From IMG/VR virus record IMGVR_UViG_3300033049_000041, positions 21,232-85,231 of that record: a stretch of 64,000 nucleotides of DNA; one strand, written 5' to 3'. The DNA comes from a virus. Numbering within the stretch: position 1 is the first letter of the stretch; every line of letters begins with the position of its first letter. The translations under genes were made by a program, and so were the position numbers. This document shows positions 3,638 to 33,649 of this stretch, piece by piece. A model generated the notes under the pieces. The model was not told the origin of the DNA. It searched no databases and saw only the letters and a list, made by a program, of their open reading frames with translations.

Positions 3638-3853
3638 TTATCGGTCTTCTTCATCTATAGGTGATGTAATTAGTATAGATTCCTCGTATTTCGGAGGATT
3701 AGGTACTGTCTTCATAATATATTCAGATAATGGGTCACCTTTCTCCATTATTACTTCTATATACAAATTCTTTATAGTAGTTGGATCTGGTATCTCATCA
3801 TTATCTAACCCATCTTCTCCCATTTTAAACATTCTCCTCGTAATAATTTTCAT
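3638..3853 (-). CDS. hypothetical protein
   Basis: 71-aa ORF. Confidence 0.55.
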   Translation of the reverse strand: MKIITRRMFKMGEDGLDNDEIPDPTTIKNLYIEVIMEKGDPLSEYIMKTVPNPPKYEESILITSPIDEEDR

Positions 3854-3894
3854 TCTCCTCTGTTTTAAAATGCCTTACTTCTATTTTATTTAAA

Positions 3895-4310
3895 ATCAAC
3901 CTGGTGTGTTGTTACACCAAAAGCTCTAAGGGACGTTCATATAGCATCAGGGACTATTAAGATAATACTAACATGTCGTTATCCCTTTGATTCCCTATTC
4001 CGTTGTGTACTACGGAAACTTACTATATTTTCTCAGACCGTCATTAGACCACAATACATCTGCTAAGTTTGGAATGACTTAATATTTCAATTAAGCCAAT
4101 AATTCTAGCTGGATAATACCATCTTCTTCAAAATCTTTTCCCTAAGTTTCGAGACACCCTATCAGCATTATCTCCTTTAACATGCCGCCTACTTCTCTAC
4201 TCATATCTAAAATAGATATTCTGTGGTGATACGCAAGTTGCAACTTACTCCCACAAACTTTCGCTACTCTTTAAATGATGACTACTTCCAAGCCTACATC
4301 CCTGATTGAT
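3895..4310 (-). ncRNA. large ncRNA whose ends mimic 23S rRNA helices 42-44 (L11-binding GTPase centre)
   Basis: 5' end CAGGGATGTAGGCTTGGAAGTAGTCATCATTTAAAGAGT and 3' end GGTGTAACAACACACCAG match the two halves of the H43/H44 sequence; termini ATCAATCAGG and CCAGGTTGAT pair; no long ORF. Confidence 0.75.
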
Positions 4311-4318
4311 ATTTTTAT

Positions 4319-4715
4319 TTAAAATGCCATATAAATACAAAACGAATTGATAAGTATGTGCCAAATATTATCAATCTTAATCTTTAACATAATTGCTACA
4401 CTAGTATCCATTCTTACTCCAAATCCATAGTTAGCTTGTCCCCCAACTCCAATTCCTGAACATAATCCAATAAGTAGCCATGTCATAATGGTCAATTATA
4501 ATATGCGTAAACGCAAGTACACTTAACCAAAACATAGCTAATGGATTACTGGAACAACAGAATAATATAAGAAATCCAATACTGTAACTAAGTCCATGGA
4601 CTATTGCTACATGAATATATTTTCCTTTATTTTGAGCCATCCAATTATCTTGAATAAGATAATCTCCAATTAAATGACATAAGAATCCAACTATTAACGC
4701 TAATTCTAAACTCAT
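4319..4715 (-). pseudogene. DUF3307-like membrane protein with one frameshift
   Basis: HLIGDYLIQ, HG, THIIIDH motifs; frame stops at 4431 but NYGFG...IDNIWHILIN continues in a shifted frame after a G5 run. Confidence 0.65.
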
Positions 4716-4775
4716 AATTTGGGTTTTATGTAAACAAAAAAAGACACCCGTAATGGATGTCTTATCTAATTTTAG

Positions 4776-4854: not shown

Positions 4855-4986
4855 AAGCAGGGAATAAATCTATAAAGAGTTGTGAGCTAATGCTCGGCAA
4901 GAGTTGAACTTGCGACCCTTTGAATTAAAATCAAATGTTCTACCAACTGAACTACGAAGTAACTCTTTAAATTAATATCCCTGCTT
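4855..4986 (-). ncRNA. Y-like module RNA 1 (tRNA D/AC/T arms inside the module, anticodon position UUA)
   Basis: Outer stem AAGCAGGGA/TCCCTGCTT, TATTAATT, inner stem TAAAGAGTT/AACTCTTTA, TTACTTCG, then D, anticodon and T arms. Confidence 0.8.
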
Positions 4987-21033: not shown

Positions 21034-21396
21034 TTAACTAGTTAGTTGCAATCTAAATCTACATTGTAAACTTAGAGTATGCGATAACTCTTTCTTTCCT
21101 GCTATCTTATCTAAACCAGATTCAATGAAAATAATATCAATTAGATTTATCTTCTTAGACTTAAATAATTTCCTATAACCTCTCTTAGTATAATTAAGAG
21201 CTGTTCTAAGTTCCTTATTCGAGATATTATTCTCTTTCATGTAATCTTTAATTACACCTAGAAGAATATCATAAATACCTACTGTAACTAACCAAGCATT
21301 ACTATCAGTATCACTCATAGCAGTAGTTGCTTGTACAAATAAGTCCTTTATATCATCCTTATTAATTGGCTTATTATTCTTAAATTTCTTACTCAT
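21034..21396 (-). CDS. possible HTH DNA-binding protein
   Basis: YMKENNISNKELRTAL resembles an XRE-type HTH. Confidence 0.55.
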   Translation of the reverse strand: MSKKFKNNKPINKDDIKDLFVQATTAMSDTDSNAWLVTVGIYDILLGVIKDYMKENNISNKELRTALNYTKRGYRKLFKSKKINLIDIIFIESGLDKIAGKKELSHTLSLQCRFRLQLTS

Positions 21397-23574: not shown

Positions 23575-24591
23575 TTAAACTACATACAAATCTTTTGCAG
23601 TTAGTTTTATTTTGTGTTGTTTTACCACATCTTCCCAATCCTTGTAATTGGATGGTGGTAAATATTTATTCTCTTTTCTATTATACTCTCCTCTAACTCC
23701 AGTGATTTGCCACATAGAATCTGTTGCTGCAGATTTAACTCCATCATCAGTTCCTCTAGTTAATGAAAAGAAATCATTTCCTGGAAAAGATACATGATCC
23801 CATGCAACTAAACTAAAGAAACTAATACCTTCATCAGGTCTAAATAACTGAGGTCTAGGTTGTTTACTATTCAAATAAGGTCTAGATGCAAATAATGTTT
23901 TACCTCCAATTACCCAACTCTGGTCAACACCAACAGAATACGGATCGTACCATATCCCGAGTATGTTAGTCCACTTAGTTTTATAGTCTTCTAGTAACTC
24001 TAGTAACGTTGCTAACAGCAAGGTATGAACTTCTGCTTTATGTTTCCCTGCAAACTGACCACATCCAATTCCAGGAATAGTCACCATTGCAGGAACTCCT
24101 TGCTTATTAGCCTTTTCACTAATGTAAGTAAATACTGGAATAAGCTTTTCTCTAACCAATTCTTTATACAACTCAGGTACTACTTTACCGTTCTTAACTA
24201 TATCATAATCTACTGGAGTAATTGTACCAGCAGCTCTAAGAAGTGGTCCAGGAACGTAAACTAATGTACCATGAAAAGGTGTTCCGTGTAATGCTGGATT
24301 CTGATGTTTACCATCATCATAAATAGTCACTGGAACAGCAACACTTATATTACCAAGCACTTTTAGTTCCGCATTAGTCCAATCAGAGCCATCACCTTTA
24401 ATTTCAGATTCAGCAAACATTTCTGGTTGCTTTGTCTCAAGTAGAAAATCTAACTTAGATTCCTTAGATAACGGTATTCTTGCCATGCAGGGAAATAACG
24501 TAGTATTAGAAAAATTAGTTCCAGCATCACAAAGACTAAAATTCTCTAATCTTTGCATATTCTTCTTAGAGGTAATTATTGTATAATTCAT
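23575..24591 (-). CDS. MavL/Larg1-like macrodomain ADP-ribosylhydrolase
   Basis: PGIGCGQFAG loop and VAWDHVSFPGNDFF...RGTDDGVK, matching my recollection of the Legionella MavL catalytic loop. Confidence 0.72.
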   Translation of the reverse strand: MNYTIITSKKNMQRLENFSLCDAGTNFSNTTLFPCMARIPLSKESKLDFLLETKQPEMFAESEIKGDGSDWTNAELKVLGNISVAVPVTIYDDGKHQNPALHGTPFHGTLVYVPGPLLRAAGTITPVDYDIVKNGKVVPELYKELVREKLIPVFTYISEKANKQGVPAMVTIPGIGCGQFAGKHKAEVHTLLLATLLELLEDYKTKWTNILGIWYDPYSVGVDQSWVIGGKTLFASRPYLNSKQPRPQLFRPDEGISFFSLVAWDHVSFPGNDFFSLTRGTDDGVKSAATDSMWQITGVRGEYNRKENKYLPPSNYKDWEDVVKQHKIKLTAKDLYVV

Positions 24592-31816: not shown

Positions 31817-33649
31817 TTACCAAGAACCAAATGGCTCTAATTTAATTTCATTAACAGTATCATACAGCGCATTCGGATTAGCTTCCATTGCAATCAATTG
31901 CTTGAGTGTCTCGTAACTATATCCTGTTGAATGAATAATATTCGGATCATTATTATCAGGCATACAAGATGTACCATACGAATTAACGTTGATTAGGTAC
32001 ACATATACTCCTGATAAATTATTCTCTTCCATCCATCTCTTATACATTATGTATGCAGCACCAGCTACTCCATTCTGCATATCTGAGATAATGAATACAC
32101 GTTCTACTGGCTTAATTTGATGAGCATCTCTATAAGAACTTTTACATTGAAATATAGAACCCATATTAGTACCATGAGAAAAACGTGATAGTCTGGCAGT
32201 ACGTACAAACGTTTGTGCAATACTAGAAACACTATTAGAAGGGTCATAAGCAATTGCACCAGTTGCCGAAGCAAACTCATACAAATCAGCATTAACACCT
32301 TTTGCTAGTGTAGCGCCAATCAAAGCACCAATTTCTAATGGAGTCTTCTTATTGTAAGTATTTGCACAATGTCTTGGATTACGCATAGATGCAGATGAAT
32401 CAATTACAACAGCACTTCTACCAAAGAAACCTAAGTCTTCAAGGTTAGCACATGCAATATCATAAGCTTTATCTAAGTGTACTACGATTCGTCTACTAGC
32501 TGCATCACCAATCTGCATCATCATATCTCTAGCTTGTTCCACTTGATGCGGAAATACTAGATTACTAGGTGATTTGATTAATTTCTCATCAATTAATAAA
32601 GCACAGGCTTTCTCAAGCAATACTTTATCCATGGTACTTGATGCAGCATCATGTATGTTCTTCAGATTTCTAAGTAAAGCAAAATAACCAATCTTTCTAC
32701 TCTCAATCAGTGTACGGAAGTTTGCGGACTTACCTTTCACTAATTCTACTTGAGCTTGAGACTTCGTAATCTTACCTTCTTTCACCTTCTTAGCCACTGT
32801 TTGACCAAGCTTGGTGTTCTTATCTTCTACTGTATCCATTTGGCGTAACCATCCGTATATAGCAGCTTGAAAAGCATCTACTCGAACATAACCATCCTTA
32901 ACTCGAAGATTAGCTTTACGTATTTTCTCGTATATAGCATTCTCATTCTTCTTAGTAATGGCTTTACGCATATCAGTCTCATAGTCCTCAATCTTAATTG
33001 AAGCCCAGGCTCTTGATTTATTTGGTACAGGTCTCGTCAAGTTGATTAAATCAACCAAACTAACCATCTTACCTTTATTTTGATATTTTGCTAACTCATA
33101 CCAATCCGCTGATTCTAAGCCTTTTCTAAAGCCTTTAAGCATACTATTAGGTAAATTAATACCTTTGAATGCATCTAGCGTATTGATGTCTCTACCCTTA
33201 GCTTTAGCTCTCGTAATGTAGTAGTATGAAGCAATTTCCATCATGTCATCGACACGGAAAATAACTCCACCCATTTCTTTCTTACGATGTCTCTTACTAA
33301 AGAACAACCTTGCACATTGCTCACCACTTAACGATTTCATCAATCGTACTGCAGCAATATGAGTTCCTGTTCTATGTCCGTCTTTCGCACGAACGTAAAC
33401 AATGAGTTTTGCAGTGAATTCTGCTCCGTATACTTTAACACTCTCGTCGACAGCATCATTTAACATCCTGATTTCCTGAGATTCAGTTAGATAGTATGTT
33501 CTACCATCATACTTCTTAGTCGTCAGAATAGATAATAAATGCATGAAGGTCTTATAGGAATACCCTACACCACCTTGTCTAGTGTTCATCCTCTTGCTGG
33601 TATTAGCAGCTCTCTCCTTAACAATCCTCTTTTGATTGAACCTCGCCAT
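31817..33649 (-). CDS. Ro60/Rsr-like TROVE plus vWA RNA-binding protein
   Basis: NTRQGGVGY, YELAKY, SLVDLINLTRP, IGYFALLRNL, vWA MIDAS VIDSSASM, GTN, IISDMQ. Confidence 0.92.
   Translation of the reverse strand: MARFNQKRIVKERAANTSKRMNTRQGGVGYSYKTFMHLLSILTTKKYDGRTYYLTESQEIRMLNDAVDESVKVYGAEFTAKLIVYVRAKDGHRTGTHIAAVRLMKSLSGEQCARLFFSKRHRKKEMGGVIFRVDDMMEIASYYYITRAKAKGRDINTLDAFKGINLPNSMLKGFRKGLESADWYELAKYQNKGKMVSLVDLINLTRPVPNKSRAWASIKIEDYETDMRKAITKKNENAIYEKIRKANLRVKDGYVRVDAFQAAIYGWLRQMDTVEDKNTKLGQTVAKKVKEGKITKSQAQVELVKGKSANFRTLIESRKIGYFALLRNLKNIHDAASSTMDKVLLEKACALLIDEKLIKSPSNLVFPHQVEQARDMMMQIGDAASRRIVVHLDKAYDIACANLEDLGFFGRSAVVIDSSASMRNPRHCANTYNKKTPLEIGALIGATLAKGVNADLYEFASATGAIAYDPSNSVSSIAQTFVRTARLSRFSHGTNMGSIFQCKSSYRDAHQIKPVERVFIISDMQNGVAGAAYIMYKRWMEENNLSGVYVYLINVNSYGTSCMPDNNDPNIIHSTGYSYETLKQLIAMEANPNALYDTVNEIKLEPFGSW

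Follow-up and report, generated by a model that had tools for sequence, protein, structure and literature searches.

The locus

The 64,000-nucleotide (nt) stretch of DNA analysed here, called the window throughout, has a G+C content of 32% and covers positions 21,232 to 85,231 of an 85-kb virus record in IMG/VR (IMGVR_UViG_3300033049_000041), which CheckV estimates to be about 41% complete. Within the window ARAGORN detects 25 transfer RNA (tRNA) genes and a transfer-messenger RNA (tmRNA) gene, all of them on the minus strand. On the same strand, 465 nt downstream of a tRNA-Gln gene, lies the element that is the subject of this work, a putative non-coding RNA of 416 nt (3895..4310), with a small open reading frame (ORF) stopping 8 nt upstream of it and the next gene beginning approximately 40 nt downstream. 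Both sequence and covariation place its limits at an outer closing helix, the ends of which are candidate transcript ends.

The element was first proposed by a model working from the letters of the window (the original prediction), as an RNA that rebuilds the uL11-binding domain of 23S ribosomal RNA (rRNA) around a large insert. The start and end then given, 4310 and 3895, proved exact, and the termini do pair, in a helix of ten positions made of nine standard pairs and one A-A mismatch. The interior is also free of ORFs as had been claimed, in that no ORF of at least 60 amino acids overlaps it, the only ones that do being of 31, 33 and 39 amino acids. It is apparent from the analysis below that the 5' 47 nt and the 3' 30 nt of the element assemble into a self-closed copy of the GTPase-associated centre (GAC) of 23S rRNA, with a closing helix in place of helix 42 (H42), an H43-like hairpin, an H44-like hairpin and the base triple. 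At the level of sequence, positions 12-45 of the element are identical to Escherichia coli 23S rRNA 1055-1088 at 30 of 34 positions (88%, blastn-short), with rRNA numbering here and throughout being that of E. coli rrlB as taken from an annotated record.

A family of RNAs in large phages

A blastn search with the element as query, run on 50,697 phage records, yielded short matches in Cronobacter phage GAP32, Acinetobacter phage ME3 and Ralstonia phage RSP15, where they fall in gaps of the annotation. All three gaps share one layout, in which 130-260 nt of insert separate a 5' half and a 3' half that are both GAC-like. A fourth match, to Paenibacillus phage Pd_22F, was rejected as genuine 23S rRNA. 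The Pd_22F record (L055, MZ092003.1) holds, at ~82.2-85.1 kb, an unannotated and apparently full-length host-type 23S rRNA beside a serine recombinase gene.

The wider family was collected with a degenerate pattern for the 3' half, the 5' half then being located with a loose H43 filter. The pattern scan returned 45 viral contigs from IMG/VR, 117 stretches from metagenomes and, among 185,579 prokaryote species genomes, three contigs, two of which are contigs of metagenome-assembled genomes that carry the element while the third (L053) is a chance match. Of the 48 viral and genome loci, seven were without a recognisable or complete 5' half, with L013, L024, L025, L046 and L050 left out because the stored stretch does not contain them whole, and L019 and L040 because of natural truncation; a further 27 of the metagenome loci were left out, having no 5' half within 560 nt or being cut. 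The complete elements cut out number 134, of which 109 are distinct, and they are 217-604 nt long including 18 nt of flank on each side. The sample thus covers relatives that have the searched 3' half, and since the 3' motif and the H43 filter served to retrieve the members, invariance within those motifs is uninformative.

Similarity between inserts sorts the elements, which come from unrelated phages, into 51 lineages, and the two halves, joined into one RNA by the original prediction, are found kept together in these 51 insert lineages. The version in GAP32 is found in 14 cultured jumbo-phage records at a coverage of at least 80%, with the locus annotated 'none' in all but one of them, and cultured carriers of the family include GAP32, CBB, Serratia BF, ME3 and RSP15. 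The element family is phage-specific, and its carriers are large phages. Full-text literature searches found no description of a phage RNA copying the GAC or the sarcin-ricin loop; the family of GAC-mimic RNAs, defined here from 109 distinct members, appears to be undescribed. Two of the loci left out, L019 (2497-2642) and L040 (minus strand, ~1701-1900), hold 5'-truncated copies consisting of the 3' part only, which in both cases stand directly after tRNA genes.

Structure of the GAC-like core

Covariation in the core was assessed on a MAFFT alignment of 38 distinct sequences, drawn from the 44 elements then collected, in which 19 pairs were counted (nine of the closing helix, three and four of the lower and upper H43 stem, 1087-1102 and two of H44), making 722 cells. 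Standard pairs occupy 95.0% of these cells, compared with 74.1% in shuffled alignments and 35-53% when the partners are slid, and for 15 of the 19 changes are seen in both partners; in none of five measures did any of 500 shuffles do as well. Covariation had been named as a check on the predicted fold, and with 15 of 19 pairs compensated it supports the GAC fold, with the G-U pairs being compatible with the minus strand alone.

The closing helix, P1, is the equivalent of the top of H42, with its 5' strand at 4301..4310 (rRNA ~1046-1055) and its 3' strand at 3895..3904 (rRNA ~1104-1113). It has nine covarying pairs with 92.1% of cells paired in the 38 sequences, and the window shares this family feature of ends joined by a helix of their own, with nine of its ten positions paired. 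The sequence of P1 is not conserved, only its pairing, which marks the RNA as a self-contained domain.

Inside P1 the H43-like hairpin (4275..4299; 1057-1081) matches rRNA in sequence, and comprises a lower stem of 3 base pairs (bp), with 99.1% of cells paired, and an upper stem of 4 bp, with 94.7% paired, capped by a loop that contains G1067 and U1072. The H43 stem was said to be kept with a G-U change, and there is indeed a single G-U pair, G1063-U1075, in the upper stem. Of the bases left free by the search pattern and the 5' filter, U1060 and A1077 each occur in 107 of the 109 distinct members. In L030, L032, L042 and L136 a second insert, of 35-60 nt or more, occurs between A1077 and the junction at 1082, in the region of the lower stem of H43.

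The junction that follows (4266..4274; 1082-1090) reads UUAAA and then GAGU, with 1082:1086 being U:A in the window and covarying across the family, where U:A occurs 78 times, A:U 16 times, C:G 11 times and C:A twice among 107 anchored sequences. On the 3' side the H44-like hairpin (3905..3917; 1091-1103), which is likewise supported by covariation, has a G-C and a U-A pair beneath a loop of GUAACA. The compensatory change that had been claimed for H44 is real, as the pair 1092-1099 is U-A here and C-G in rRNA, and in the 38 sequences this pair is U-A in 16, C-G in 11 and U-G in 11. C1102 may pair with G1087, its partner in rRNA, or, in the RNAalifold drawing, with the G of UUUGG on the returning strand, all of these bases being invariant here.

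A further pattern is one of tertiary structure. Position 1072 changes together with the pair 1092-1099, with the combination C/C-G in 42, U/U-A in 38 and U/U-G in 27 of the 109 distinct sequences and two exceptions; C1072 occurs with C1092 in 42 of 43 sequences and U1072 with U1092 in 65 of 65. The two main states of 1072 occur in 32 and 21 of the 51 lineages, two lineages holding both, and the window, with U1072 and U1092-A1099, is in one of these two states. The set 1072/(1092-1099) is the base triple that comparative analysis had already identified in the genuine GAC, the structure and triple of which are reportedly described by Conn, Gutell and Draper, by Wimberly, and by Munishkin and Wool.

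The accessory domain

Between the two halves of the core lies an accessory domain of 339 nt, which leaves the core through a 3-bp helix immediately after position 1090. This is not the helix of the original prediction, in which the insert budded from H44 through AAGAGU/GCUUUU: that helix has 78.1% of cells paired, which is the same as the shuffled mean of 78.1%, it has no compensated pair, and one of its pairs is standard in just two of 38 sequences. The actual closing helix, Pc, pairs the three bases after GAGU with the three before UUUGG, which in the window are AGC (4263..4265) and GCU (3922..3924). All 114 of its 114 cells are paired, 25 being changed on both sides, none of 500 shuffles is as good, and the helix also emerges from RNAalifold on 22 long forms. 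The strand returning from the insert into H44 (3918..3928) reads UAGAG-CU-UUUG, its G at 3924 and CU at 3923-3922 being the 3' strand of Pc; this motif is present in all members, but it was part of the search pattern.

These 22 long forms were taken from 67 distinct ones, with one sequence for each insert cluster, less the poorly aligning L071, L116 and L136 and with L153 and L135 added. From this divergent set RNAalifold draws 29 pairs, 22 of them with compensatory changes, and beyond the core it gives two helices, Pa and the stem of a hairpin that in most members has the motif AGUAC-GAGA-GGA. In all long forms Pa begins at a distance of 5 nt from GAGU; it stops immediately ahead of AGGG and has a 4-bp core (alignment columns 86-89 with 222-225) in which three of the four pairs are compensated. 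It can form in the window, where its strands would be AAGUUU (4255..4260) and AAACUU (4144..4149), the latter directly before AGGG. A further helix, Pb, would pair AGGGA (4139..4143) with UCCCU (3929..3933), directly before UAGAG; in the 22 long forms 81 of 81 cells are paired, though as Pb is mostly invariant and a slide of +1 still gives 96.3%, support for it is weak.

The second RNAalifold helix carries a motif that resembles another part of 23S rRNA, the sarcin-ricin loop. A hairpin of the form A[G/U]UAC-N4-5-GGA is found in 60 of the 109 distinct elements, and its presence follows length, with 59 of 67 elements of at least 355 nt having it, one of eight between 300 and 354 nt and none of 34 below 300 nt. 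The loop is GAGA in 41 of the 60, AAGC in six, GGGA in five and AAGA in three, with five singletons. In L006 the hairpin is identical to the E. coli sarcin-ricin loop over 13 of 13 bases (2653-2665) and in L042 over 14 of 14 (2652-2665), and in the long forms its outer stem covaries (RNAalifold). The homologue in the window (3991..4018), placed by alignment with the AGUAC-GAGA-GGA hairpins, has an outer stem of UUUCC/GGGAA and the AGUA...GAA flanks, with a loop of ACAAC and not GAGA, and it can refold into a plain 6-bp hairpin, UUCCGU/ACGGAA.

Relation to ribosomal RNA

In the window the sequence likeness to rRNA ends with the core. Beyond positions 12-45 of the element, nothing in the 425-nt stretch searched gave a match to E. 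coli 16S, 23S or 5S rRNA or to the Paenibacillus 23S copy of L055 (blastn-short, E<=5), the latter being identical to the 5' part of the element at 32 of 36 bases. Decayed rRNA, which would have undone the original prediction had it made up the insert, is not what lies there, as an insert without rRNA match at this threshold argues that the middle 339 nt are not decayed rRNA. The search of all Rfam models, among them those for large subunit (LSU) rRNA, that had been put forward as a further check gave no family for the element, either in a scan of the whole window at gathering thresholds or in a scan of 3700-4500 at E<=10; elsewhere the Rfam 15 scans (4227 families) found tRNAs and the tmRNA only, plus two matches at chance level (E of 6.5 and 8.9).

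Several identities for the element can be rejected on these grounds. It is not a genuine 23S rRNA gene or a fragment of one, given that only positions 12-45 match, that cmscan gives no LSU rRNA match and that a 339-nt insert follows position 1090. It is not a group I or group II intron, there being no Rfam match at E<=10 on either strand of 3700-4500. A ribosomal protein leader (L10_leader and the like) is rejected as well, with no Rfam match and no gene for uL10, uL11 or bL12 in the 85-kb record. The evidence supports the element being a selected, structured mimic of the uL11-binding domain of 23S rRNA and not a decayed fragment. On this point the original prediction has held, with an insert free of rRNA similarity, both halves kept in 51 lineages, and helices and a tertiary triple that covary.

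Genomic context

It is apparent that members of the family tend to be found with tRNA genes. Taking one representative for each lineage, a tRNA gene lies within 2.5 kb of the RNA in 34 of 51 and within 100 nt in 22 of 51, and all 172 of the 172 tRNA genes within 2.5 kb are on the strand of the RNA. No such association is seen with proteins, as no family of neighbouring proteins spans more than two of the 51 lineages and none of the adjacent proteins in the window falls into a PHROG or Pfam family. A search with a neighbouring protein of 249 amino acids brought up the one relative of this phage that could be detected (53% identity), a complete contig of 178 kb, in which there are no tRNA genes nearby, no 3' motif is found and the RNA is absent.

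The element is flanked by an exact direct repeat of 13 nt, with an upstream copy at 4313..4325 and a downstream copy at 3884..3896 that overlaps the last two bases of P1, both on the minus strand. The 64-kb window contains no further exact copy, the two lying one at each end of the element, and the repeat may represent an insertion scar or else a shared signal. Together with the relative that lacks the RNA and the truncated copies, it makes the element look accessory and possibly movable. A further observation is that the upstream flank GGCATTTTAAA recurs approximately 25 nt downstream of the element.

Signals for transcription were looked for in the window. Directly after tRNA-Gln, between it and the element, a terminator scan finds a terminator-like hairpin with a U-run (4741-4763, minus strand). 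A promoter scan was uninformative, as it gave nine promoter-like sites against 7.1 +/- 2.5 in shuffles, and no upstream motif common to the element and the tRNAs was seen.

Three other features of the window deserve mention, all on the minus strand. A protein of 338 amino acids in the tRNA cluster (23575-24591) matches the MavL macrodomain family at 317 bits and may be an enzyme that removes ADP-ribose. Beside the tmRNA gene an ORF of 610 amino acids (31817-33649) gives a weak match to TROVE (Ro60), at 14.8 bits and below the cut-off, and belongs to no Pfam family at E<=0.001. A tRNA predicted by ARAGORN at 4890-4961 has the anticodon UUA and would read the stop codon UAA; its Rfam match covers model positions 5-66 only.

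Possible function

A number of proteins could be partners of such an RNA, and were sought in five carriers, namely the present record (~41% complete), a complete 182-kb gut phage, GAP32, ME3 and RSP15. No uL11, uL10, bL12, GTP_EFTU or RelA_SpoT domain was found in any of the five, in searches in which the positive controls matched, so that a partner that is uL11, uL10, bL12, an EF-Tu-type GTPase or RelA/SpoT must be encoded by the host.

What such an RNA might do in the infected cell can be sketched as follows. The RNA would be made together with the phage tRNAs and trimmed to a stable form, and would fold like the 58-nt uL11-binding domain, so that host uL11, and perhaps the stalk base with uL10-bL12, may bind to it. 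It would then act away from the ribosome as a copy of the factor-docking site, and by holding uL11 or proteins that use this site (translational GTPases and stringent factors of the RelA type), or both, it might shift the control of host translation in favour of the phage. The broader part of this proposal, that the element is a free-standing, off-ribosome imitation of the factor-docking site bound by host uL11, is one for which the case, drawn from sequence comparison, seems evenly balanced. Speaking for it are the sequence identity to 23S rRNA, the covariation of the core and of the triple, the constancy of U1060 and A1077, a closing helix kept in its pairing only, the position on the strand of the tRNAs as a setting for stable RNA, the mere two real matches among 185,579 prokaryote genomes and the sarcin-ricin-type hairpin of the long forms. 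The more specific part is tentative and distinctly less probable, namely that the RNA with host uL11 and the uL10-bL12 stalk forms a free 'mini factor-binding site', completed in the long forms by the sarcin-ricin loop, by which a translational GTPase, RelA or a defence effector directed at the ribosome would be captured.

There are a number of points that weigh against the proposal of an off-ribosome docking site. Free uL11 pools are small, and the effect of titrating them is therefore not obviously large. The base touched by factors and by thiostrepton is A1067, which is a G in the window, and 1067-1070 vary across the family. The window's ACAAC loop in the sarcin-ricin-type hairpin is one of the singletons among the 60 sequences that bear that hairpin. 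The invariance of the 3' half is imposed by the search pattern, as is part of the conservation of H43 by the 5' filter. The only sequencing run listed for the stretch is a DNA metagenome run from seawater, probably the source sample, with no RNA run listed. Folded on its own under nearest-neighbour rules, the sequence favours other pairings, with free energies of -106.1 kcal/mol unconstrained, -90.9 kcal/mol with the core enforced and -79.0 kcal/mol with all family helices enforced, and the structure of minimum free energy keeps P1 and H44 and not H43. Finally, the insert of the window has no sequence similarity detectable by blastn to the inserts of other members, and folding of the window copy by itself fails to recover Pa, Pb or the outer stem of the sarcin-ricin-type hairpin, so that the map of its insert is one of positional homology alone.

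One alternative is that the element is a decoy, on which a host defence nuclease, glycosidase or modifying enzyme would be spent, with the spare GAC (and in long forms the spare sarcin-ricin loop) attacked and the ribosomes spared. The sets of tRNAs carried by phages are thought to buffer tRNA-cutting defences in a similar manner, and the element sits in tRNA clusters on the strand of the tRNAs. It is also accessory and patchy in its distribution, with a relative that lacks it, truncated copies (L019, L040) and a 13-nt flanking repeat; both of the sites it mimics are classic toxin targets, and the MavL-type macrodomain protein (317 bits) is found in the same cluster of the window. However, no bacterial defence enzyme acting on the GAC is known to us, whilst the sarcin-ricin-type loop, which is a real toxin target, is not kept in the window, varies in 19 of the 60 distinct sequences with the hairpin and is missing from all 34 of the short forms. 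A decoy is rather unlikely, but it is the strongest of the alternatives.

Far less probable is action on the ribosome itself, with the insert as a docking domain that would place the spare GAC with its stalk proteins on host ribosomes, either to replace a stalk base that is damaged or lacks uL11 or to make ribosomes specialised for the phage. The accessory domain is large and of conserved architecture (Pc, Pa), and bL12-domain proteins and bS21 that enter ribosomes are known to be encoded by phages (PMC6375957). However, the insert ranges in length from ~130 to 350 nt or more, its sequence is conserved in a few motifs only, and it shows neither complementarity nor similarity to rRNA. To our knowledge action of this kind is also without precedent.

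Equally improbable is a role in cis, in which the element would serve an adjacent gene or the transcript of the tRNAs as a leader, terminator or processing signal, although the close spacing of the flanking ORFs in the window, 8 nt upstream and ~40 nt downstream, would suit it and the H44 hairpin with its U-rich tail was scored as terminator-like. No family of neighbouring proteins recurs in more than two of the 51 lineages, those in the window have no family at all, and 416 nt with a conserved tertiary core far exceeds the needs of a terminator. The idea of a dead remnant, a captured fragment of 23S rRNA, perhaps with an intron at 1090, decaying without function, is scarcely credible: real host 23S rRNA can occur in phage records (Pd_22F) and 1090 is a known intron site of ribosomal DNA, but it is contradicted by the rRNA comparison (no rRNA outside the 58-nt domain, an insert without rRNA match at E<=5, a closing helix built from non-rRNA sequence), by the Rfam scan (no intron or other family at E<=10) and by the core covariation (15 of 19 pairs compensated), and the occurrence in 51 insert lineages also speaks against it.

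Comparison with known systems

Compared with the bacterial GAC, which comprises the top of H42 with H43 and H44 (E. coli 1051-1108) and binds uL11 and thiostrepton, the phage RNA has the same helices in the same order and the same type of H44 loop, and it keeps the covarying 1072/(1092-1099) triple, U1060, G1071 and A1077. Unlike the GAC it is free-standing, with a closing helix of its own of arbitrary sequence and a 339-nt domain after 1090; it has an A at 1101, an additional UUUG before 1091 and variable bases at 1067-1070 (G1067 here), and it is encoded beside tRNA genes and not within an rRNA operon. There is also a likeness to the sarcin-ricin loop (H95), with the long forms carrying AGUAC-GAGA-GGA on a covarying stem whilst the window keeps its place, its flanks and AGUA...GAA, but has the tetraloop replaced by ACAAC and the possibility of a plain 6-bp refold.

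RNAs that copy rRNA are known in another setting. The messenger RNA leaders of ribosomal proteins, such as the uL1 site of the L11 operon and the L10(L12)4 site of rplJ, are non-ribosomal RNAs that copy the site of a protein on rRNA and compete for that protein (PMC10931766). The phage RNA is similar in copying a protein-binding site of rRNA outside the ribosome. Such leaders, however, are short cis elements upstream of the ribosomal protein genes they regulate in cellular genomes, whereas the phage RNA adjoins no ribosomal protein gene, copies a whole tertiary domain and is matched by no leader model in Rfam. Among large structured RNAs of phages and prophages, ROOL and GOLLD, both of which are in Rfam, are often found beside tRNA genes and are of unknown function; the phage RNA differs from them in copying an rRNA domain, and matches neither model. 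Other RNA mimics known to us copy tRNAs, promoters or short ribosomal protein sites. At the protein level there is a precedent for phages meddling with the ribosomal stalk, and at that level only, in the bL12-domain and bS21 proteins that phages are known to carry (PMC6375957).

What appears to be new here is a free-standing RNA, found in many unrelated large phages and with no description found, that rebuilds a whole tertiary domain of the factor-binding centre of the ribosome. Since cultured carriers exist (GAP32, CBB, Serratia BF, ME3, RSP15), its proposed action is directly testable. If uL11 or proteins of the factor site are bound by it, it would be a new means for viruses to disturb translation or the stringent response, or alternatively a novel type of counter-defence, and would also provide a natural and compact handle on the GAC fold, available in hundreds of sequence variants. 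Should it act as a mini factor-binding site, then large phages would be controlling host translation, the stringent response or abortive infection by means of an RNA copy of the docking platform of the ribosome.

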